A stretch of DNA of 64,000 nucleotides, from the NCBI GenBank assembly GCA_937958015.1, contig CALGOA010000063.1, forward strand, positions 9,079-73,078, read 5' to 3'. The notes beneath the pieces are model-generated. The model made no database searches. It worked only from the letters and a program-made list of their open reading frames with translations, and was not told the origin of the DNA. This document shows positions 10,660 through 56,897 of this stretch, piece after piece. The translations under genes were made by a program, and so were the position numbers. Origin of the DNA: an uncultured Acidimicrobiales bacterium. Its GTDB lineage: Bacteria; Actinomycetota; Acidimicrobiia; Acidimicrobiales; SZUA-35. Each line of letters starts with the position of its first letter. Position 1 is the stretch's first letter.

Positions 10660-11235
10660 TCAGTCGTCGATCCACGACTCGTCCGGGACGCCGAGTCCGT
10701 CGGCGATCCGGTTGACGTAGGCGTAGTAGGCGGTGACCTCGGCGATGTCGAGGATGTCCCGGTCGGAGAAACCAGCCGAGCGCAGGGCGTCGACGTCGGA
10801 CTTCACCATTTCGCCGGGACGCAGGGTGAGTTTTACCGCGTACTCCAGCATCGCCGTTCTGGACGGCGACAGCTGCGCCTGGCGCCAATCTGTTTCGATG
10901 CTGTTGAGCAGTTCATCGTCATGCAGGAGTCGACGCAGACCGCGTCGGTGATGCACCACTCAATAGTGGCAATGGTTCTCGAGGCTGACGACCAGTGCGA
11001 TCATCTCCCGCTCCACCTTCCGGAGCGTGGCTGTTCCCGCCATCGCAGACTGGTAGACCGCGTTGTGAGCAGCGAGTCCTCTGGGATTCAGCGACTGGAT
11101 CGCCATGATGTTGTCGATTCGGCCGTACTGGCCATCGACCACCGTTCCGTCCAGCTCGGCCAAGCCGCCCGACCCCTCCTCGTTCCACCGTTCGTCGGGG
11201 ATCGTTTCGATCCATGCTTCGTCGTGGGTAGCCAT
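10660..11235 (-). CDS. AhpD/carboxymuconolactone-decarboxylase-family 'peroxidase-related enzyme' with in-frame TGA (candidate selenocysteine, CxxU)
   Basis: Track ORFs 10960..11553(-) and 10660..10959(-) share one frame and are separated only by TGA at 10962..10960. The joined 191-codon product reads ...KVEREMIALVVSLENHCHY[TGA]VVHHRRGLRRLL...AMLEYAVKLT...LRSAGFSDRDILDIAEVTAYYAYVNRIADGLG. This is collinear with the CMD/AhpD core, whose motif is C-x-Y-C-V-x-x-H. The start ATG at 11235 is in frame. Confidence 0.65.
10931..10947 (-). promoter_or_regulatory. SECIS-like stem-loop downstream of the in-frame UGA
   Basis: The mRNA reads UGA GUG GUG CAU CAC CGACGC-GGUCU-GCGUCG, a perfect 6-bp GC-rich stem with a 5-nt loop. 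Counting U of UGA as 1, the loop GGUCU occupies nt 22-26. Confidence 0.5.
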
Positions 11236-11303
11236 AACCCATTGTTCCACAGCACAGCCGATCGCTTCCCGTGTGGTGGCACTAGAAGAAGACCACCAGT
11301 GGT

Positions 11304-11720
11304 CTAGATCTCGACCCACGCCGCCGGTCGGTTGGGGCGACTGGGCGGTGTGGGTCGTCGACCGGGATGGTCGTGAGTCTCGGGCGACTGTTCCCAGTCC
11401 CGCAGGTCGCCCAACCACCGGTCGTAGGCGTAGCTGTGGCTGAGGGACCGGGAAGTGAAGTGGTTCATCGCCTCGGCATAGGCGGCCACCACCGCGGCTC
11501 GCTCGCGGCAGAGCGTGGCGAGTTCTGCCAGTTCGACGGCGTCGGCGGCACACTCGTTTTCAACCCGGGTGACGAACAGGTCGACCTCCATTGCAAGCTG
11601 TCCGCCGGTCAGTACGTCGGGACCAAAGGAGCCAGCGATGAGGTTGGGCGTCGCGGACACCTCATCGCTGGCCTCCTCGAACAGCCGGGCAGCGTGCAGA
11701 AAGTCGGACTCGGTCGGCAT
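11304..11720 (-). CDS. hypothetical protein, translationally coupled partner of the WXG100-like gene
   Basis: 138 aa ORF starting 5 nt after the stop of the upstream gene. Predicted helical N-terminal part and a Pro-rich tail. No motif recognised. Confidence 0.55.
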   Translation of the reverse strand: MPTESDFLHAARLFEEASDEVSATPNLIAGSFGPDVLTGGQLAMEVDLFVTRVENECAADAVELAELATLCRERAAVVAAYAEAMNHFTSRSLSHSYAYDRWLGDLRDWEQSPETHDHPGRRPTPPSRPNRPAAWVEI

Positions 11721-11725
11721 GGGGA

Positions 11726-12211
11726 TTAGCCGACCGACATCCCGCCCATGGCGGCTTCGAGATTGGCCCGCTGGGTTGTCACCGCGGTGCTCATTGACGT
11801 GGACGACTGAGAAGCTGAGTCGAGCGCAGCATGGATCTCCTGGGCGTACGCGGCGATCTCTTCACCCATGCGGCCGATTGTGGCCCGCAGGCCGGTGAAG
11901 GTCTCGTTGGTATTGGTCTGGGCGGTATTCATGGCGGCTTCGAAGTCGCCGTAGTGCCCATCGAACGTGACCCGATTGGGGCCGGTCCAGTCGGCCGCAG
12001 CCAGTTCGCCCCGAGACCTGGCCACGGCGGCGACCATGTCGGCCATGGCCTGTTCGATCGCGGACCGCGTGGCTTCGGCGATGTCGTTCATCTGGGCCAC
12101 TGCGTCGCCGGCCGCTCGTTGCGCGTTGCCGTTGACATCGAGGATGTCGGCTGAGGTCTGGCCGAGCGACCCGCTGAGCGAATCGAGTTGGTCGAGTGAT
12201 GCACCGATCAT
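11726..12211 (-). CDS. WXG100-like (ESAT-6-like) helical protein
   Basis: Start moved to the ATG at 12211, which is preceded by AAGGAG 7 nt upstream. Ala/Gln-rich helical sequence with a central W-x-G (AAADWTGPNRVTFDGHYGDFEAAM). At 161 aa it is longer than canonical ~100-aa WXG100 proteins. Confidence 0.6.
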   Translation of the reverse strand: MIGASLDQLDSLSGSLGQTSADILDVNGNAQRAAGDAVAQMNDIAEATRSAIEQAMADMVAAVARSRGELAAADWTGPNRVTFDGHYGDFEAAMNTAQTNTNETFTGLRATIGRMGEEIAAYAQEIHAALDSASQSSTSMSTAVTTQRANLEAAMGGMSVG

Positions 12212-12390
12212 TGCTGAACTCCTTGGTTGAGAAATGCGGCTAAATGCGTTCAACCGCTTTCAAGTGAATGTACCGAACCGACGTTGAAAGTAAATAGACG
12301 AATTAGAGGTTGGGAACGTCTACCTACGGTTGAGTGATGGTGGACCGCCGCCATTGGAGGCTGTTCGAAGCGGGGGAGTAGGTTCGGATT

Positions 12391-17850: not shown

Positions 17851-18121
17851 GGATATCGAATCCGATCGATTGCCGCTTCTGACGCTCCTGCCGCAGAGCA
17901 GATCGCCTGCGAGGTCCCAATCCCACCTGATGACGTCTAGCCGCAAGACAAACGGGACAATCCGCCTTTGGCCCTCTGTGGGCCTGGAATCTAAGAAATC
18001 CAATACCTGAGGATGATTCAGGAAACTCCGGGCGGGGCTGCGTGTTGTTCGACCAAGACCTGCTCGCAGCTCAAGGCCGTTTCGCCGGGCGATTGGGGCA
18101 ACGATGGTACGTTTCGTGCCT

Positions 18122-19657
18122 ATGGCAGAGAAAGTCAAGCTGCGGATTGGAAGCGTGGCAAAGGCTGTGCTCGTTACGGGTCAGGCATATCAGGACCCGA
18201 AGGACGCATTAAACGAATTCGTCTCGAACGCTGCCGACGAGTACATCGCCACCGAGTTTGGTCGGATTCGCGTGATCCTTCGCCGGCGCGGCCGCTACCC
18301 GACCATCGCTATCGACGATATGGGCCGTGGAATGTCTCAGGATCGACTGAGGGAGGTTGCTCGAAACCTCTTTAAGTCGGTAAAGGCGGGAGATGACAAG
18401 ACCCTGGGTGAGAAGGCGATCGGACTTCTGGCGTTTCAACAGCTCGGCGCTCGATTGGAAGTCGTTTCTCGTGCAGAAGGAAGTGACGAGACTTGGAGCC
18501 TGAAACTCGAGCGCGGATCGGCCACGGCAAACCTCGCACTCGAAAAACGTCGGGCTCGATCGATGCCCGGTACAACGGTGTACTTGGGCCGCCTCGACAA
18601 AGAGGTTCTTCGTATGCTCACCCAACGCAAGGTGGTCGACTACCTCCGACGTCGGCGTGGGCCCGCCATCGAGCAGGGCCTCTACGAAATCGAGGTCATC
18701 GAGGGCCAGAGCTCCGAACTGGTCACCCCGGACGAACCCGAGGGGGTCAAGGTGCCTCTCAGGGCTCAGGCCACCTTGTGGGGTCCGCTCGAGTTTTCGC
18801 TGTACGTCACACCTCCTGATGGCAAGGACCGGTCGGTCGCTGTGGTCGGTCGGGCTGGTACGACGATCATCGATGACCTTTCTGAGATGGAGGAGTTTCA
18901 GACCCAGCCATGGACGGCGGGTCAGGTAACAGGTCGAATCAGCTTTCCACCGCTTCAGCAGTCAGCGGGACGCCGTGCGATCCTGCGGGACGACAGTGCG
19001 TTTCCGGTATTCCTGGACACGGTTCGTGCGATCGAGCCGTCAGTCCAAACGCTTTTGGAGCGCGTGAGGGCAGAGATCGATCGTGTCGCCAGCGACCGAA
19101 TGTCGGACGAGATTCGGAGGATCTTTGCTTCGGTTCTTCGGGAACTGGAAGATCTGGACAACCCGATGCGTAGTCCTACCGGCGGATTACTCGGTGACGT
19201 CGGTGAAGACCCGGGCGACATTGACACCGTGGGAGACGAAGAGCAGGGCGCAGGACCCACCGAGGAGTCAGCCGACTCGGATCCCCACGACGAATCAGAT
19301 CCGAGTATCGACGATCTCACCGGTCACGGCCGTCCGCCGATTCCGCCCGAACCCAAGGGCGAGGGCCGCAAGAACCGGCGTTCCCGCAAGCTGCCAACAC
19401 TCGAGCCAGACCCAGCACCGGGGGATGTCCGCAGCCGATTCGACCCCGAGGAACGCGTAGTGTTCTATTCTGAGCGCCACCCTGACTTTCTCATGGTGAA
19501 GGGAAACGAGGCTGAGCTACTGGACTACCTGGCAACGCTGGTCGCCAAGGAATATGTCGTCTACAACAACCCCATGGCAGCCGCTCCTGAACTGGCTGAG
19601 GAGATGGTTCGCATGGTGATCCGAGTCCGGCGCCATCTCATTCGTCGACGCCGCTAG
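18122..19657 (+). CDS. GHKL-superfamily ATPase (HATPase_c_3 / MORC-like), orphan
   Basis: Bergerat-fold motifs: N-box ALNEFVSNAADE, G1 IDDMGRGMS (DxGxG) and G2 GEKAIGLLAFQQLG. A long acidic disordered linker and a conserved-looking C-terminal helical module follow. The track start is 18104, and ATG at 18122 is equally possible. Codon usage is visibly less GC-rich than in neighbouring genes. Confidence 0.7.
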   Translation: MAEKVKLRIGSVAKAVLVTGQAYQDPKDALNEFVSNAADEYIATEFGRIRVILRRRGRYPTIAIDDMGRGMSQDRLREVARNLFKSVKAGDDKTLGEKAIGLLAFQQLGARLEVVSRAEGSDETWSLKLERGSATANLALEKRRARSMPGTTVYLGRLDKEVLRMLTQRKVVDYLRRRRGPAIEQGLYEIEVIEGQSSELVTPDEPEGVKVPLRAQATLWGPLEFSLYVTPPDGKDRSVAVVGRAGTTIIDDLSEMEEFQTQPWTAGQVTGRISFPPLQQSAGRRAILRDDSAFPVFLDTVRAIEPSVQTLLERVRAEIDRVASDRMSDEIRRIFASVLRELEDLDNPMRSPTGGLLGDVGEDPGDIDTVGDEEQGAGPTEESADSDPHDESDPSIDDLTGHGRPPIPPEPKGEGRKNRRSRKLPTLEPDPAPGDVRSRFDPEERVVFYSERHPDFLMVKGNEAELLDYLATLVAKEYVVYNNPMAAAPELAEEMVRMVIRVRRHLIRRRR

Positions 19658-19692
19658 GTCTATGACGGGCTCAAACGCTAAGCGCCTCTTTG

Positions 19693-19741
19693 TCTAGCGC
19701 CCTTGGCAAGAATCGAACTTGCGACGCACGGTTTAGGAAAC
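19693..19741. repeat. 49-bp direct repeat, a duplicated 3' half of tRNA-Arg (att-like, distal copy)
   Basis: TCTAGCGCCCTTGGCAAGAATCGAACTTGCGACGCACGGTTTAGGAAAC is identical to 22683..22731, which covers the anticodon loop to the 3' end of the intact tRNA. Confidence 0.9.
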
Positions 19742-19900
19742 TGCCGTGAGCGGTACCGGCCCGTGCCGACGAGTTCCGAAAATTGTCAGTTTGTCCTGTT
19801 CAGAAACGGCCCGCTTGCCGGATCGTTCCGTTCGATACCGGACGTTCCCGCCCTGTCCAGACCACCCATATGGGACAATCCATGGGACACTCCAACGTCG

Positions 19901-21373
19901 CTAAGACGCGGCGCCATACCCGCCCAGGTTGGCGGAAAGGGCCAGTTCAGACTGCAAGCCCAGCGCTATCAGGAACAAGTCGAGCGGAAGACTGCCGATG
20001 CCCGACTCATCTGGAGGTTGCACCTGTGATGGCGGCGTCACCAAGAACGATCGGCCCGAAAACTCAGGAAAGCGTTCAATGAGCCGGCCGAGTCCACTAC
20101 GGGAATGGGAGACCGAGGAACCAATCTCGAACGCCATCGGCGCACCCGGCAGATTCAGGATCAAGTCAACTTCCTCCCTCTTGTCCCGCCAATGAAAGAC
20201 CCGGGTGTTGGTGAGGATGGCCAGATTGCGCACCGCGGTAGCTACGAGGTTCTCAAGTAGATGACCAAGCTCGGTGGGGTTATCCAGCGGAGTCAACCCT
20301 CTCTGAAGCGCAGCGTTTCGGATCGCACCATCGACGAAATACAGCTTTCGCCCTCGGCGCTGGACATTCGACTCAATTCCAGAGAAGTTCGACAAGGTAA
20401 AGATCATGTAGGCCTGCTCGAGATACGAAACGTACTTATCGAGAGTGGGTTGGGCGATACCTAGATCGTTACTCACGTTGGTCGGCGACAGAATTCCCGT
20501 GACCTGCGCGGCCAGAACGTAAAGCAGCCTCTCCAGTGTCATCGGGTTGTCAACGCCAAACGACTGAGGAATGTCCTTGTAGATCGCTCGCTCAACAGCA
20601 TCGGTTCGAAGCACTCGCTGAGATCGGAGCAGTTGGTCGCCTTCGCTCTCGGGCGCGTCCCTCACCAAAGCAGCAAGAAGTTCTGGAAACCCACCCACCA
20701 GCATGAAGGCCCGGCGCTGTGCCATCAACGCCTCGGTCGTCGGCTGACCGGGCCGCAAGTGTGCGATCGTCTCGGCCAGATCACTGCCGACGTCAATCTG
20801 GGGAGGCTCAACTCCAGCCAGATTCAGGAACTCGGCAAAATGGTACGGGCCAAGGTACTGCTCGGTCCACCGGCCGATCCCACTTTCGGTTCGTCTCTTG
20901 CGCAGATCAGCTGTTGCGCTCGAAGTCGCAGCGATGCGCACCGGCCATTGGTCGTCGAAGAATGTCTTCAACCAAAGATCCCAGTCCTCGATGTAGACCA
21001 GTTCGTCCAACATCAAGTACACCGGCCGATCCGGAGTTGCGCCCGCAGCATTCATCGCCTGGCGGACCAAACGAGAGAGATCCTCCCGCATCAGCACCGG
21101 ATGATCGAGACGCATCCACCAGATTCGATCGGGCGAGACACCCTCACTGATCAGGTGGCGCACCGTCTGATACAGAACGGTTGTCTTGCCAACCCGTCGC
21201 GGTCCGAGAATCAAGTGGAATCGATGCGGATCGTCCTCCAGCAACGACTTCCAAAGCGCTTTCGCCATTGGCCTCTCAGTCGGTGGGGCGAGAGAATCCG
21301 ACACTTGTCCTCGCCGATGCCAAACGTTCTGTTCCTCAAACACACGGAGAATTTCCTCAGCGCTCATAACCAA
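19901..21373 (-). CDS. AAA+ ATPase with C-terminal DUF4143-type domain (COG1373-like)
   Basis: 490 aa. Walker A GPRRVGKTT and Walker B LMLDELVY. The overall AAA_14 plus DUF4143 architecture was recognised from sequence. It lies inside the tRNA-bracketed insertion. Confidence 0.85.
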   Translation of the reverse strand: MVMSAEEILRVFEEQNVWHRRGQVSDSLAPPTERPMAKALWKSLLEDDPHRFHLILGPRRVGKTTVLYQTVRHLISEGVSPDRIWWMRLDHPVLMREDLSRLVRQAMNAAGATPDRPVYLMLDELVYIEDWDLWLKTFFDDQWPVRIAATSSATADLRKRRTESGIGRWTEQYLGPYHFAEFLNLAGVEPPQIDVGSDLAETIAHLRPGQPTTEALMAQRRAFMLVGGFPELLAALVRDAPESEGDQLLRSQRVLRTDAVERAIYKDIPQSFGVDNPMTLERLLYVLAAQVTGILSPTNVSNDLGIAQPTLDKYVSYLEQAYMIFTLSNFSGIESNVQRRGRKLYFVDGAIRNAALQRGLTPLDNPTELGHLLENLVATAVRNLAILTNTRVFHWRDKREEVDLILNLPGAPMAFEIGSSVSHSRSGLGRLIERFPEFSGRSFLVTPPSQVQPPDESGIGSLPLDLFLIALGLQSELALSANLGGYGAAS

Positions 21374-22538: not shown

Positions 22539-22687
22539 ACTAACAATCACCCGTGTCTCACCAACCGGGGGAACTCCACGCCGACCCTAGCGAACATATG
22601 GACACTTACATGGGACACGCGATCGGAAAGACCGATACAAGCCAGTACATTCCGGCACGACAGGCCGTTGAACTGGACTTTCTCTAG

Positions 22688-22760
22688 CGCCCTTGGCAAG
22701 AATCGAACTTGCGACGCACGGTTTAGGAAACCGACGCTCTATCCACTGAGCTACAAGGGC
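22688..22760 (-). tRNA. tRNA-Arg (anticodon CCT)
   Basis: 73-nt cloverleaf folded by hand: acceptor GCCCTTG/CAAGGGC, D arm GCTC/GAGC, anticodon loop TTCCTAA, T arm GCAAG-TTCGATT-CTTGC, discriminator G. CCA is not encoded. Confidence 0.9.
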
Positions 22761-45976: not shown

Positions 45977-46546
45977 GTGACTTCGCCCAACGAGACGGGT
46001 CTGGCGGGGGGACCGGGTCTTGCGCCATTCTGGATCCGGAGAACGTCGGATGATTTCGACGCAGTGGAGAGACATCACAAGTTGAGTGAATTCAAGCGCA
46101 CAGAGATCTTTACGGTGTTCCTTATCGGCGCCGTCGCCGTCGCGCTCTTGGTCGTGGGGTTCAACCGCGACCGCAGCAGCCTGATCGAAGCGGAACCGGC
46201 CGGTACCAGTACCTCGGCGCCGGTGACTCCGATTTCAGCTCCGGCAAACACCACCGAAGCGACCACCACCGTGGCTACAACGACGACCGAAACCTCTACA
46301 ACTACGACGCTCCCCACCACGACCAACACCTCCACAACTACGACGCTGCCGACCACGACCACGGTCGCCACCACAACCACTGAGGCGACGACCACCACTG
46401 CGGCCCCAGCCACGACGGCGGCGCCGCGGCGTACGACCCGTCCGCCGACGACCCGTCGGCCCACGACGACTCGTCCGCCCACCACTCCGGCACCTACCCA
46501 GCCGCCTCGTACCTTCGCTCCGCCGACGTGGACGGTTGCGCCCTAG
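45977..46546 (+). CDS. membrane-anchored Thr/Pro-rich low-complexity protein
   Basis: One TM helix (IFTVFLIGAVAVALLVVGF), then about 110 aa of T/P-rich sequence including a 36-nt direct duplication at 46292-46360. The start is uncertain: GTG at 45977 or TTG at 46082. Confidence 0.45.
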   Translation: MTSPNETGLAGGPGLAPFWIRRTSDDFDAVERHHKLSEFKRTEIFTVFLIGAVAVALLVVGFNRDRSSLIEAEPAGTSTSAPVTPISAPANTTEATTTVATTTTETSTTTTLPTTTNTSTTTTLPTTTTVATTTTEATTTTAAPATTAAPRRTTRPPTTRRPTTTRPPTTPAPTQPPRTFAPPTWTVAP

Positions 46547-52741: not shown

Positions 52742-55579
52742 TTACTCGGCGAAGGCCTCCAACGGGGGACAGGAACACTGCAGATTGCGGTCGCCGTGGG
52801 CGTTGTCGATTCGACCGACCGGGGGGAAGTACTTGTCCCTCTCCATTCCCGGCAACGGGAAGGCGGCGTGGGCCCGGGTATAGGGCCGGTCCCATTCTTC
52901 GGTGGTGACATCGGCGGCGGTGTGGGGAGCCCGCCGCAGCACGCTCTGTTCGATCGCCACCTCACCATCGGACACCCGGGCGATCTCGGTCGCGATACCG
53001 ATCATCGAGTCGCAGAAGCGGTCGAGCTCGGCGAGACCCTCACTCTCGGTCGGTTCGATCATGAGGGTGCCGCCGACGGGGAAACTCATCGTTGGTGCAT
53101 GGAACCCGTAGTCGGCCAGTCGTTTGGCGATGTCATCGACGTCCACCCCGGTGCTCTCGTGCAGCGGTCGGATGTCGATGATGCACTCGTGAGCGATGAG
53201 CCCGCCCGGTCCGGTGTAGAGGATCGGAAAGTGTTCCCGGAGTCGGGACGCCACGTAGTTTGCCGCCAGGACGGCGCCTTCGGTGGCTCGCCGTAGCCCT
53301 CGTGGTCCCATCATGCGGATGTACATCCACGAGATGGGCAGGATCCCCGCCGAGCCATAGGCGGCTCCGGAAATTCGACGTTGGGGTTCGTCGGCGGTCG
53401 GTACGTGGGTCTGGGGGAGGAACGGAATCAGGTGTTCGCCGACTCCGATCGGCCCAACCCCGGGACCACCGCCGCCGTGGGGGATACAGAAGGTCTTGTG
53501 GAGATTCAGATGGCTCACGTCGCTACCGAATTGGCCGGGTTGAGCGACACCGACCAGCGCATTGAGGTTGGCACCGTCGGTGTACACCTGACCGCCGGCG
53601 TCGTGCACGAGCGAACAGACCCGAGCGACGGTGTGCTCGTACACGCCATGGGTGCTGGGGTAGGTGATCATGAGGGCCGCGAGTTCGTCGCGGTTGGCTT
53701 CGATCTTGGCTTCCAGATCGGGCATGTCGATGTCGCCGCGTTCGTTGGTCGCGACCACGACCACCTTCATCCCGGCCATGACCGCCGACGCGGCGTTCGT
53801 GCCGTGGGCACTCTGGGGAATCAGACAGATAGTGCGGTGTCCTTCGCCCCGAGCTTCCTGCCAACCCTTGATGGCGAGAAGACCGGCGTATTCGCCCTGG
53901 CTCCCGGCGTTGGGCTGCAGGCTGATGGCGTCGTAGCCGGTTATTTCGGAGAGGTCCCTTTCGAGGTCGTCGATCAGCGCGGCGTACCCGCGGGTTTGGT
54001 TTTCCGGAGCGAACGGGTGGATCGCTGCGAACTCGGGCCAGGTGATCGGTTCCATTTCGGCGGCGGCGTTCAGCTTCATCGTGCACGAACCCAGCGGGAT
54101 CATGGTCCGGTCGAGGGCGAGGTCGCGGTCGGCGAGGCGTCGTAACCATCGGAGCATCTCGTGTTCGCTTTGGAAGCGGTGGAAACGATCGTCGGTTAGG
54201 TACTCCGAGGTTCGTTGCATCGAGGCGGGAATGCCGGGCATCGAACCCGCAGGCGTCTCGTCCTGGTCCCCGGTAATGCCGAAGCTCTCGACCACCGCCT
54301 TGACCGTTTCCATAGTGCAGGTTTCGTCGAATGAGAACGAGACGTGACTGTCATCGATCCGGCGTAGGTTGATGCGGTTCGCGACCGCAGCGTTCACTAC
54401 GGCGTCGGCATCCTCGACTTGCACCGTGATCGTGTCGAAGAAGGTCGGCGGAACCGTGTAGCCGTTCTTCTCGAGCGTCCCGCCCACCATTGCGGTCAGG
54501 TTGTTGATCCGGTCGGCGATGACCTTAAGACCGTCGGGGCCATGCCAGCAGGCGTACGACGCGGCGACGTTGGCGAGCAGTGCCTGGGCGGTGCAGATGT
54601 TGCTGGTGGCCTTGTCCCGTCGGATGTGTTGTTCGCGGGTCTGGAGGGCCAGTCGGTAGGCGGGATCGCCGTGGCTGTCGATGCTGACACCCACCAGGCG
54701 GCCGGGCAGTGAACGGGCGTGTTTTTCGCGTGTCGCCATGAATCCAGCGTGGGGCCCACCGAACCCCATCGGCACGCCGAACCGCTGTGCACTGCCGACC
54801 ACCACGTCGGCTCCCAGTTCGCCCGGTGAAACGCCGAGCGTGCAGTAGAACAGATCGGTTGTCACCGCGACCGAGGCTCCGCCGGCGTGGATCGATTCGA
54901 TGATGGGACCGAGGTCCCGCACGATGCCCGAGGAGCCGGGCTGGGCGATGAGGGCGCCGTAGATGTCGTCGGGCACCAGGTCGGTTGCCGGGTCGCCGAC
55001 GGTGATGTTGATGCCCAGGGGCTCCGCCCGAGTCCGACAGACGGCGATGGTCTGGGGATGGCAGTCCTCGTCGACAAAGAAGCCGGTTCGTTTCGTGCGG
55101 TCCAGTCGCCGCAGCATGGTCATCGCCTCTGCGGATGCGGTTGCCTCATCGAGCAACGATGCGTTTGCGAGTTCGCAGCCTGTCAGGTCGGCGATCATCG
55201 TCTGAAAGACCAGCAGCATCTCGAGCCGGCCCTGGCTGATCTCGGGTTGGTAGGGCGTGTAGGCGGTGTACCAGGCCGGGTTCTCGATCATGTTGCGACG
55301 GATCACGGCCGGGGTGATCGTTGCGTTCCACCCCTGTCCGAGCAGACTGGTGAAGACCTCGTTCTGGTCGGCATAGGACCGCAGCAGCGCCAGTGCCTCG
55401 GTTTCATCCAGAGCATCGGGGAGTGAAAGAAGTCCCTTCAGATGGATGTCGTCGGGCACGGCCGCTTCCAACAGGTCGGAGGCGGTGGCATAACCGAGAC
55501 CGGCCAGCATCTTGGCCTGGTCGTCCGAGGTGAGGCTGACGTGGCGGTCGGCGAAGTTGTGATGGCGTGGACTGTTCAT
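52742..55579 (-). CDS. gcvP: glycine dehydrogenase (decarboxylating), glycine cleavage system P protein
   Basis: 945 aa single-chain P protein with typical N- and C-terminal halves (e.g. [12 protein letters not shown].., [19 protein letters not shown] with the PLP lysine region). Confidence 0.97.
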
Positions 55580-55582
55580 GAA

Positions 55583-56704
55583 TCAGGCTCCTCGATGGAA
55601 ACGATGGGGGACGAATGGCAGGGGTGCAACGACGCAGGGCACGTCGTTGCCCCGAACGTCGGCGATCAGTTCGGTGCCGATTTCGGAAAGGGCTGGAGGT
55701 ACGAACCCCATGGCGACGGGCGCTTCAACCGTGGGCCCGAACCCGCCGCTGGAGACCACACCGATCGGCTCGGAGGTACCCCGGGTGCGAAGAGAAGCGC
55801 CGTCGCGGACCGGACGGCGTCCCTGTGGCGCCAGCCCTACTCGAATTCGTGATGGGCCCGATTCCCACTCCGACAGGATGCGTTCGGCACCCGGGAAGTC
55901 GGCGGCCTCCCGCCGCCGTTTGGGGATGGTCCATCGGAGATCGGCTTCGACGGGTGAGATGGTTTCATCGAGGTCGTTGCCGTAGAGGCACAACCCTGCT
56001 TCAAGCCGCAGAGTGTCGCGCGCCCCCAGGCCTGCGGGCTTCACCCGCTCGTCGGCTAGTAACGCTCGGGCCAACGCCTCGGCGTTTTCTGATGCGACGG
56101 CGATTTCGAAGCCATCCTCGCCGGTGTATCCGGCCCGGAATGCGGCGGTCTGGAAGCCGCCCAGTTCCGCCATTCGGGCGTCCAGAAAGACCGTGTCGGC
56201 TAACGAGGGGTCCATGCCGACGACCACGGATGCGGCCTCGGGACCCTGGAGTGCCAACAGCGCAATCTCGGGTTTCGGACGCACCTCGATCGAATACTGT
56301 TCCAACCGTTCGGTGAGGTGGGGAATGTCGACGCCGGCCCTCGATGCGTTCACGACCAGCGTGAAGTGGTTCCCCCAGTTGATCGCCATGAAATCGTCGA
56401 TAACGCCGCCGTCGTCGTTGGTGAGCAGCCCATACCGTTGGCGGCCCGAGGCAAGCGTTGTGAAGCCGGCGGGTGAAACCGATTCGAGGGCGGCGGCCGG
56501 ATCGTCTCCCCACAACTCGACAACCGCCATGTGGGCGACATCGAACAACACGGCACTGGATCGGCACCAGTTGTGTTCTGCGACGACGCCCTGGTACTGG
56601 ATTGGCATCTCCCACCCGGCGAAGGGCACCAGCCGACCACCGAGTTCGGTGTGGAGTGCATGAAGCGGTGTCGTCTGTAGATCGGACGGTTCTGGATTGG
56701 ACAT
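55583..56704 (-). CDS. gcvT: aminomethyltransferase, glycine cleavage system T protein
   Basis: TPLHALHTELGGRLVPFAGWEMPIQY is the canonical GcvT N-terminus. ATG at 56704 is preceded by GAGG 6 nt upstream; the track uses TTG at 56716. Confidence 0.95.
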   Translation of the reverse strand: MSNPEPSDLQTTPLHALHTELGGRLVPFAGWEMPIQYQGVVAEHNWCRSSAVLFDVAHMAVVELWGDDPAAALESVSPAGFTTLASGRQRYGLLTNDDGGVIDDFMAINWGNHFTLVVNASRAGVDIPHLTERLEQYSIEVRPKPEIALLALQGPEAASVVVGMDPSLADTVFLDARMAELGGFQTAAFRAGYTGEDGFEIAVASENAEALARALLADERVKPAGLGARDTLRLEAGLCLYGNDLDETISPVEADLRWTIPKRRREAADFPGAERILSEWESGPSRIRVGLAPQGRRPVRDGASLRTRGTSEPIGVVSSGGFGPTVEAPVAMGFVPPALSEIGTELIADVRGNDVPCVVAPLPFVPHRFHRGA

Positions 56705-56731
56705 TGGGCACCTCAATGGTCGGGAGAAGTA

Positions 56732-56897
56732 CCCCCTCTGTCATTGGTGCCTGAGAGCATTGCCCCTTCGGCGGTTGGCGGTGCCAACTCTCTCCAGAGG
56801 AGCCGGGATGCAGTGCGGTACATGGGCCTGAGAGTTTCCGGGGTGGTTGCTCCTTCGGCGGCCGGGTTCGGACCGGCACTCTCCCACACTGCCGTGC
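56732..56897 (-). promoter_or_regulatory. tandem glycine riboswitch (two aptamers) in the gcvT leader
   Basis: The minus-strand RNA reads GGGAGAGUGCCGG...GCCGCCGAAGGAGCAACC...CUCUCAGG, followed by CUCUGGAGAGAGUUGGCACCGCC...CCGAAGGGGCAAUGCUCUCAGGCACCAAUGACAG. This matches the conserved cores of both glycine aptamers. Confidence 0.9.

Follow-up and report, generated by a model that had tools for sequence, protein, structure and literature searches.

The question raised by this locus is whether two abutting open reading frames (ORFs) of an uncultured Acidimicrobiales bacterium, situated on the minus strand of a stretch of 64,000 nucleotides of contig CALGOA010000063.1 (this whole stretch being referred to as the window), represent two genes, one damaged gene, or one gene in which an internal UGA codon is read as selenocysteine (Sec). 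As the original prediction had claimed, and as both the sequence and its translation confirm, the ORFs at positions 10960..11553 and 10660..10959 share one frame and have a TGA at positions 10962-10960 as their sole separator. Judged from its sequence, the locus is a single gene, encoding a 191-residue AhpD-like thiol/selenol oxidoreductase of family TIGR01926 within the CMD superfamily. It is very probably a genuine Sec-encoding gene with a functional selenocysteine insertion sequence (SECIS). The features concerned are the following:

Positions 10660..11235, minus strand: putative AhpD-like (TIGR01926) selenoprotein gene, complete, with 191 codons plus a terminal TGA, based on the TIGR01926 and CMD hidden Markov models (HMMs) and on PDB homologues.
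Positions 11005..11007, minus strand: codon of E77 (Sec-15), the counterpart of Glu118 of Mycobacterium tuberculosis (Mtb) AhpD and of Glu36 of PA0269, residues of the proton relay.
Positions 10960..10962, minus strand: in-frame UGA, codon 92, probably encoding Sec, at the second position of the C89-H-Y-U92 redox motif.
Positions 10948..10959, minus strand: spacer of 12 nt between the UGA and the hairpin, comprising codons V93, V94, H95, and H96; its length is invariant in 81 sequences.
Positions 10931..10947, minus strand: SECIS-like hairpin CGACGC-GGUCU-GCGUCG, at positions 16-32 counted from the U of UGA, with its loop at 10937-10941.

The likely start of the gene is the ATG at position 11235, which is also used by public gene callers (NCBI/ENA). 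Translation from this ATG gives 91 residues, the TGA, 99 residues, and a second TGA at positions 10662-10660; around the junction, the joined product reads ...EREMIALVVSLENHCHY-[TGA]-VVHHRRGLRRLL.... When scored with the TGA replaced by Cys, this product obtained 145.3 bits with TIGR01926 ('peroxidase-related enzyme'; cutoff 81.8) and 49.5 bits with Pfam CMD (cutoff 23), in line with the AhpD/CMD-family CxxU enzyme that had been proposed. Homologues in the PDB (3c1l, 2pfx, 6k40, 2oyo, and 2prr) could be aligned continuously over residues 33-184, with E values down to 3e-33, and this unbroken alignment across the TGA indicates that both ORFs form one domain. The TGA column corresponds to the second Cys of the C-x-Y-C-x3-H motif of these homologues, and Cys occupies this column in 51 homologues, solved structures among them. 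The active-site pattern E-x11-C-x-x-C/U-x3-H was retrieved completely (E77, C89, Y91, U92 (TGA), and H96), matching the EREMIA/DREMIA...C-x-Y-C-x3-H residues of 3c1l, 2pfx, and 6k40. Both the residues and the spacing of this Glu/Cys/Tyr(His)/Cys/His proton relay have been described for Mtb AhpD and PA0269 (PMC3141380), H96 being the conserved His at Sec+4.

Relatives of the gene were retrieved from GTDB r232, with each species represented by a single genome, using patterns back-translated with Cys at the TGA column, so that the scan was not biased towards TGA. The best 80 of 137 relatives were kept; counts of 81 include the window. These 80 loci are 61-81% identical, and nearly all of them are labelled as metagenome-assembled genomes (MAGs) of Acidimicrobiales, Acidimicrobiia, or Actinomycetota. 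TGA was found at the column in 80 of the 80 relatives, preceded by C-H-Y and followed by HH(R/K/G)RGLR, and the frame after the TGA is open for 98-116 codons in all 81 sequences. The amino acid identity to the window is 0.689 downstream of the TGA versus 0.671 upstream, indicating that both halves experience the same purifying selection. Furthermore, the gene's own terminator is a TGA in 59 of the 81 sequences, window included, which implies that TGA still functions as a stop codon in these genomes. Taken together, the universal TGA, the open and conserved downstream half, and the TGA terminators exclude both a recent nonsense mutation and a genome-wide reassignment of TGA. This bears directly on the explanation that the locus is a pseudogene, in which a Cys codon (TGC or TGT) would recently have turned into TGA and the hairpin would be a by-product of the codons for the peptide RRGLRR. 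A single-base change would suffice for this, and Cys forms with the same peptide exist, but the TGA persists in species-level relatives down to 61% identity. At 61-81% identity, moreover, the 80 loci are not assembly artefacts of one sequence.

Alternatively, the gene might be genuinely split into polypeptides of 91 and approximately 99 residues that assemble into one fold, the second one re-initiating at the GTG beside the TGA. Indeed, GTG follows the TGA directly in the window and likewise in 29 of the 80 loci, and gene callers do call such halves. However, no ATG, GTG, or TTG occurs within 12 codons past the TGA in 41 of the 80 loci, the codon after the TGA often being ATT, ATC, ACC, or CTC. 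Such a break would also separate the redox pair and interrupt a helix in what is one continuous domain of the solved homologues, and it would leave the strongly conserved GGUCU loop of the hairpin (see below) unexplained. A split gene is hence considered very improbable.

A few sequences deviate from this picture. Two TGA loci, L074 (labelled Saprospiraceae) and L078 (labelled Thermoanaerobaculia), contain an Acidimicrobiia-type TGA gene with the same hairpin at 61-63% identity; their occurrence in MAGs of other phyla suggests mis-binning or horizontal transfer. In the sequence P0003 (GCA_024275815.1, JAJRYI010000263.1; L089:2247-2249), the column reads TTA (Leu) and a perfect hairpin, CGUCGC-GGUCU-GCGACG, is kept; this codon, one base off TGA, reflects either an inactivating mutation of very recent date or an error in sequencing, the MAG contig having low coverage. 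A more distant homologue, P0021 of Latescibacterota CP070677.1 (L090:2244-2246), carries GGA (Gly) at the column, within C-D-Y-G, and is labelled by NCBI as an ordinary peroxidase-related enzyme. Its Gly codon is followed by the hairpin-like sequence GGGAAG-AGUC-UUUUCC, which may be a SECIS that decayed after the loss of Sec. Lastly, the 112-aa P0083 of Candidatus Poriferisodalis sp., on a 3.6-Mb contig, is devoid of approximately residues 80-147, including the CxxU and SECIS region (...KVEREYIA|QREAGFSDRD...), because of either a deletion within the gene or a gene model that was joined wrongly.

The second line of evidence concerns the RNA downstream of the UGA. The mRNA reads UGA GUG GUG CAU CAC CGACGC GGUCU GCGUCG and thus contains, inside codons R97-R102 (RRGLRR), the perfect 6-bp stem with a GGUCU loop that had been predicted at positions 10931-10947; this hairpin is present in the predicted minimum free energy (MFE) structure. 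The motif TGA-N18-GGTCTGC is expected 0.17 times per window, and at least one match occurs in 17% of shuffles; the feature is thus statistically unremarkable within the window alone and derives its significance from the comparison with relatives. There, the exact motif was found at the same site in 76 of the 80 sequences, which is contrary to the TGC codon without a hairpin that, according to the original prediction, would have pointed to a recent nonsense mutation. In the spacer, CAY CAY is invariant at the amino acid level in the 81 sequences. The third positions of the five hairpin codons have entropies of 0.62, 0.38, 0.10, 0.23, and 0.89 bits, whereas the 52 other four-fold sites that are conserved in the gene have 0.96-1.97 bits. 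Similarly, Gly99 is encoded by GGT in 80 of the 81 sequences, versus 12-24% GGT at other conserved Gly columns. In the loop, all sequences have G22, G23, C25, and U26, and 80 of 81 have U24. Concerning the stem, pair 21-27 is CG in 75 sequences, UG in three, and UA in three, and is never unpaired; pair 18-30 is GC in 52, GU in 17, AU in seven, and another combination in five, so that double changes from CG to UA and from GC to AU both occur. Overall, 91.9% of the cells are paired, versus 18-49% when the partners are slid, and none of 500 shuffles reached the observed pairing or covariation score.

A control is provided by homologues with Cys at the TGA column, of which P0004 and P0008-P0012 likewise read HHRRGL(R/Q)RLL. 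In six distinct Cys-form genes with the same RRGL(R/Q)R peptide, Gly is encoded by GGA, GGT, GGT, GGC, GGG, and GGT and Arg98 by CGC, CGG, CGC, CGG, CGT, and CGG, one gene having Leu TTG plus Gln. An intact core stem with GGUCU occurs in one of the six Cys forms versus 75 of the 81 TGA forms (Fisher p of 7e-4 at position 24 and 2e-4 at position 21). Hence, the possibility that the hairpin arises purely from codon constraints, which had been raised as a potential objection, does not hold, as the wobble positions are constrained in the TGA forms and relaxed in the Cys forms with the same peptide. The hairpin is thus under selection at the RNA level, specifically in the TGA forms. Based on these sequence comparisons, the pseudogene explanation is already refuted and its probability is negligible. 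In addition, a distant TGA form with a GC content of 30% (L087/L088) contains TGA...GGA AAA GGT CTT TTC C, with a GGAAAA/UUUUCC stem, GGUC at positions 22-25, and an A21-U26 closing pair as in the fdhF gene of Escherichia coli; its peptide is GKGLFL.

The peptide that follows the active site accordingly differs with the stem. In the GC-rich TGA forms, the stem CGNCGC/GCGNCG reads Arg-Arg...Arg-Arg, in the AT-rich TGA form the stem GGAAAA/UUUUCC reads Gly-Lys...Phe-Leu, and ordinary Cys homologues have GAAVRQ or SAALRK at the RRGLRR site. It might be, at odds slightly below even, that the RRGLRR peptide is imposed by the RNA and not by the protein, and that the Cys clade with RRGLRR is a Sec-to-Cys revertant carrying a 'fossil SECIS'. 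If so, fossil SECIS elements would be a sequence signature for dating and counting Sec losses, and Sec would have become fixed at this site across the sampled Acidimicrobiia-type relatives (80 of 80 species-level genomes). A Cys-form clade from soil and sediment metagenomes (L081-L084, L092, and L093) retains RRGLRR in another, recurrent neighbourhood, consisting of ApbE, a 105-aa ORF directly upstream, a SulP/STAS sulfate transporter, and an ECF sigma factor.

The element was further compared with the SECIS of E. coli fdhF, whose 46-nt sequence is 100% identical in 5,413 E. coli records annotated as fdhF. The loop sequence and spacing that the original prediction had given for fdhF turned out to be exact: counted from the U of UGA, GGUCUGC occupies positions 22-28 in either gene, and the hairpin of each is part of the coding region and follows the UGA closely. 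The stem in the window is perfect, with 4-6 bp and a 5-nt loop closed by C21-G27, whereas fdhF has an A21-U26 closing pair and a GGUC tetraloop. The fdhF element also has a bulged U in its upper stem (U17/U18) and a long lower helix, whereas a conserved lower helix is missing from the window hairpin. Such an extended lower SECIS helix was hinted at by the single-sequence MFE structure, but RNAalifold on the 81 sequences retained only a 4-bp core. Given the differences in the bulged U and the lower helix, the window element is, by analogy, one that would work like the fdhF SECIS without being a structural copy of it.

According to the mechanism proposed, a ribosome arriving at the UGA would be presented with the GGUC(U) loop of the hairpin 12 nt downstream, in the register of the SelB-binding loop of fdhF (G22 G23 U24 C25). 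SelB-GTP carrying Sec-tRNA(Sec) would bind this loop and deliver Sec to the A site, after which translation would proceed through the hairpin, which also codes for RRGLRR, and end at the genuine stop codon, a TGA that lacks a hairpin.

Several observations weigh against Sec insertion directed by this hairpin. First, the 76-nt fold of the single sequence is no better than that of shuffles (z = -1.24), and the bulged U of the fdhF SECIS is missing. Second, the Arg CGN codons dictate four of the six stem pairs, which would also be expected for a pseudogene, and four of the five bases in the loop are likewise determined by RRGLRR when its Arg codons are CGN. Third, the covariation within the clade is modest (covariation term of -0.31 kcal/mol), and the Cys-form control consists of six genes that are not phylogenetically independent. 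Fourth, no Rfam model matched the hairpin, either in a gathering-threshold scan of the window or in a permissive scan of positions 10850-11050; this result is uninformative in view of the poor coverage of bacterial SECIS elements by Rfam, which a 2026 preprint notes likewise. Lastly, selA, selB, selD, and tRNA-Sec were not found in the 64-kb window by means of ARAGORN, Rfam, and Pfam annotation of 40 window ORFs, which is uninformative, as such genes may be located anywhere in a genome; the only tRNA called by ARAGORN in the window was a tRNA-Arg. Similarly, tRNA-Sec was called in none of 60 loci scanned and no sel gene was present among the recurrent neighbours of the 80 loci. The selA, selB, selC, and selD genes have been reported in all 84 complete genomes of Actinomarina, which belongs to the same class (2026 preprint), providing indirect support for the use of Sec here.

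As no sel gene or tRNA-Sec lies in the window, it has to be considered that the UGA might be read through without Sec, with Trp, Cys, or Gly inserted by a suppressor or near-cognate tRNA, or following a reassignment of TGA, with the hairpin acting as a generic stimulator of read-through. In keeping with this, 15 'full-length' database entries have W at the column, and one relative each has GGA (Gly) and TTA (Leu) there, as mentioned above. However, the one W entry for which the DNA was fetched, P0018 (L087/L088), has a TGA at the locus that was translated as Trp; since the locus does not yield the protein of that entry under translation table 11, its W is a gene-caller artefact. A genome-wide reassignment conflicts with the TGA terminators of the orthologues. 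Moreover, the GGUC loop is the SelB-contact motif, in the fdhF register and frozen at synonymous sites, the column is a redox-active Cys in homologues and thus a classic Sec/Cys pair, and the family has already been catalogued as a selenoprotein family. Read-through without Sec is therefore deemed improbable, and a Sec-encoding gene remains the preferred explanation.

With respect to catalysis, the original prediction had placed the TGA on the second, resolving Cys of the CxxC centre. The second position was confirmed; the term resolving is probably wrong, because the column aligns with Cys133 of Mtb AhpD, which has been reported to attack AhpC (at Cys61), Cys130 being partly buried (PMC6626918). 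By analogy, Sec most likely replaces the attacking residue and not the resolving one. For the AhpD of B. thailandensis, the first Cys has been reported as the more important one (PMC6626918); this opposite emphasis makes the assignment one by analogy only, as the roles may not transfer. By homology, Sec92 would take the place of the exposed, attacking Cys133, Cys89 would be the resolving partner, forming a selenenylsulfide with Sec92, and Tyr91, His96, and Glu77 would constitute the proton relay. Its probable role, again by homology, is the reduction of a peroxiredoxin-type partner in its oxidised state, or of a substrate that is a peroxide or a disulfide. Mtb AhpD (Cys130-Ser-His-Cys133, Glu118, and His137), which acts as the reductant of AhpC, belongs to the same superfamily and shares the active-site spacing E-x11-C-x-x-C/U-x3-H. 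In contrast, it is a Cys enzyme with its active site in the C-terminal helices of a larger protein and with a known partner (AhpC plus the lipoamide system), whereas the window protein is a member of the shorter TIGR01926 subfamily, in which His at position -1 is replaced here by Tyr.

Selenoproteins of this kind are not new, as had been indicated beforehand, since the AhpD-like family is catalogued as a CxxU selenoprotein family and has been so since 2005. A study of the Sargasso Sea selenoproteome presented AhpD-like (COG2128) CxxU proteins as one of its new families, comprising 27 sequences, and included a figure of the SECIS (PMC1088965). Members in sequenced genomes were reported in 2006 (PMC1794560), and in the Global Ocean Sampling (GOS) data 'AhpD-like 1', with 299 sequences, ranked fourth in abundance among prokaryotic selenoprotein families (PMC2398784). 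In addition, BSepDB has a family page for AhpD-like proteins, and a 2026 review lists an 'AhpD-like protein' under TIGR01926 with CxxU (PMC13188914). The window gene shares with this family the HMM family TIGR01926, Sec at the second motif position, a bacterial SECIS hairpin that follows immediately and has guanosines in its apical loop, and an occurrence of many relatives in marine or environmental MAGs; no essential difference was found in any testable feature of membership. Two further families, NF041238 (AhpD_rel_CFYUT, 'alkylhydroperoxidase-related (seleno)protein') and NF041047 ('distant AhpD homolog'), belong to the same superfamily and have a CxxU motif; with 40 bits against a cutoff of 175, the window protein is not a member of NF041238. 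The TGA in all 80 relatives, many of which are abundant marine or environmental Acidimicrobiia MAGs, fits the surveys that rank AhpD-like proteins among the most abundant marine selenoproteins. What is known of Sec decoding or of the AhpD family is not changed by the present gene; the details added are the fixation of TGA in the best 80 of 137 relatives, the loop in the fdhF register, and the co-determination of RRGLRR by the stem.

The consequences mainly concern annotation. The expectation that standard pipelines would split the gene was correct, as NCBI/ENA list the 91-aa piece MATHDE...NHCHY as a protein of its own. Likewise, approximately 40 of the homologues returned are C-terminal halves of 105-116 aa that start just after the TGA, and such orphan halves stand in protein databases as 'hypothetical' or partial proteins, while at least 15 further entries have a spurious Trp in their active site. 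Once the gene is recognised, a complete redox enzyme is recovered, and its host can be regarded as a likely user of selenium.

A scan of the window and flanks for further selenoprotein genes, based on a TGA, a GGUC hairpin, and flanking open frames, returned the element described here as the only convincing one. Two extra matches to TGA-N18-GGTCTGC, in L078 and L081, were rejected for lack of ORF continuity, and two candidates for a TGA-split gene based on the GC content at third codon positions (GC3), at 46381 (+) and 57992 (-), resemble effects of antisense or upstream ORFs. Also, a 92-nt 'tRNA-Arg (gcg)' called by ARAGORN at L010:1860-1951 (+) begins on the SECIS hairpin, 26 nt past the TGA, and is almost certainly an artefact of the CG-rich stem.

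The genes next to the putative selenoprotein gene in the window are unrelated to it and encode a GNAT-domain protein, a BrkB-family membrane protein, an SDR, and an ABC/FtsX transporter, besides two small ORFs. A conserved operon partner, such as a peroxiredoxin, was not found among the recurrent neighbours of the loci, and no ahpC-like gene was seen among these neighbours or the annotated window genes. The commonest recurrent neighbour is a divergently transcribed SDR gene (29 of 81 loci, window included), and an AcnX-like pair lies downstream of the gene in approximately 20 loci. The two small ORFs (11726-12253 and 11304-11720, both on the minus strand) are situated between the selenoprotein gene and the divergent SDR gene and have a strong coding signal; they had no significant Pfam match and are not conserved beside the gene at other loci. 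The 175-aa ORF of this pair contains a W-x-G motif (ADWTGPN) and might be WXG100-like.

Elsewhere in the window, a tandem glycine riboswitch was found at positions 56728-56896 (-), with two aptamers scoring 63 and 51 bits. It is located directly upstream of gcvT (55583-56716, -) and gcvP (52742-55579, -), which is the standard arrangement. Finally, the region 18104-21373 encodes a HATPase_c_3 protein and an AAA_14/DUF4143 ATPase and has a GC3 of 0.66, versus approximately 0.75-0.80 elsewhere. A tRNA-Arg(CCT) gene lies near this low-GC3 region, at 22687-22760 (-), and the region may be an acquired island.

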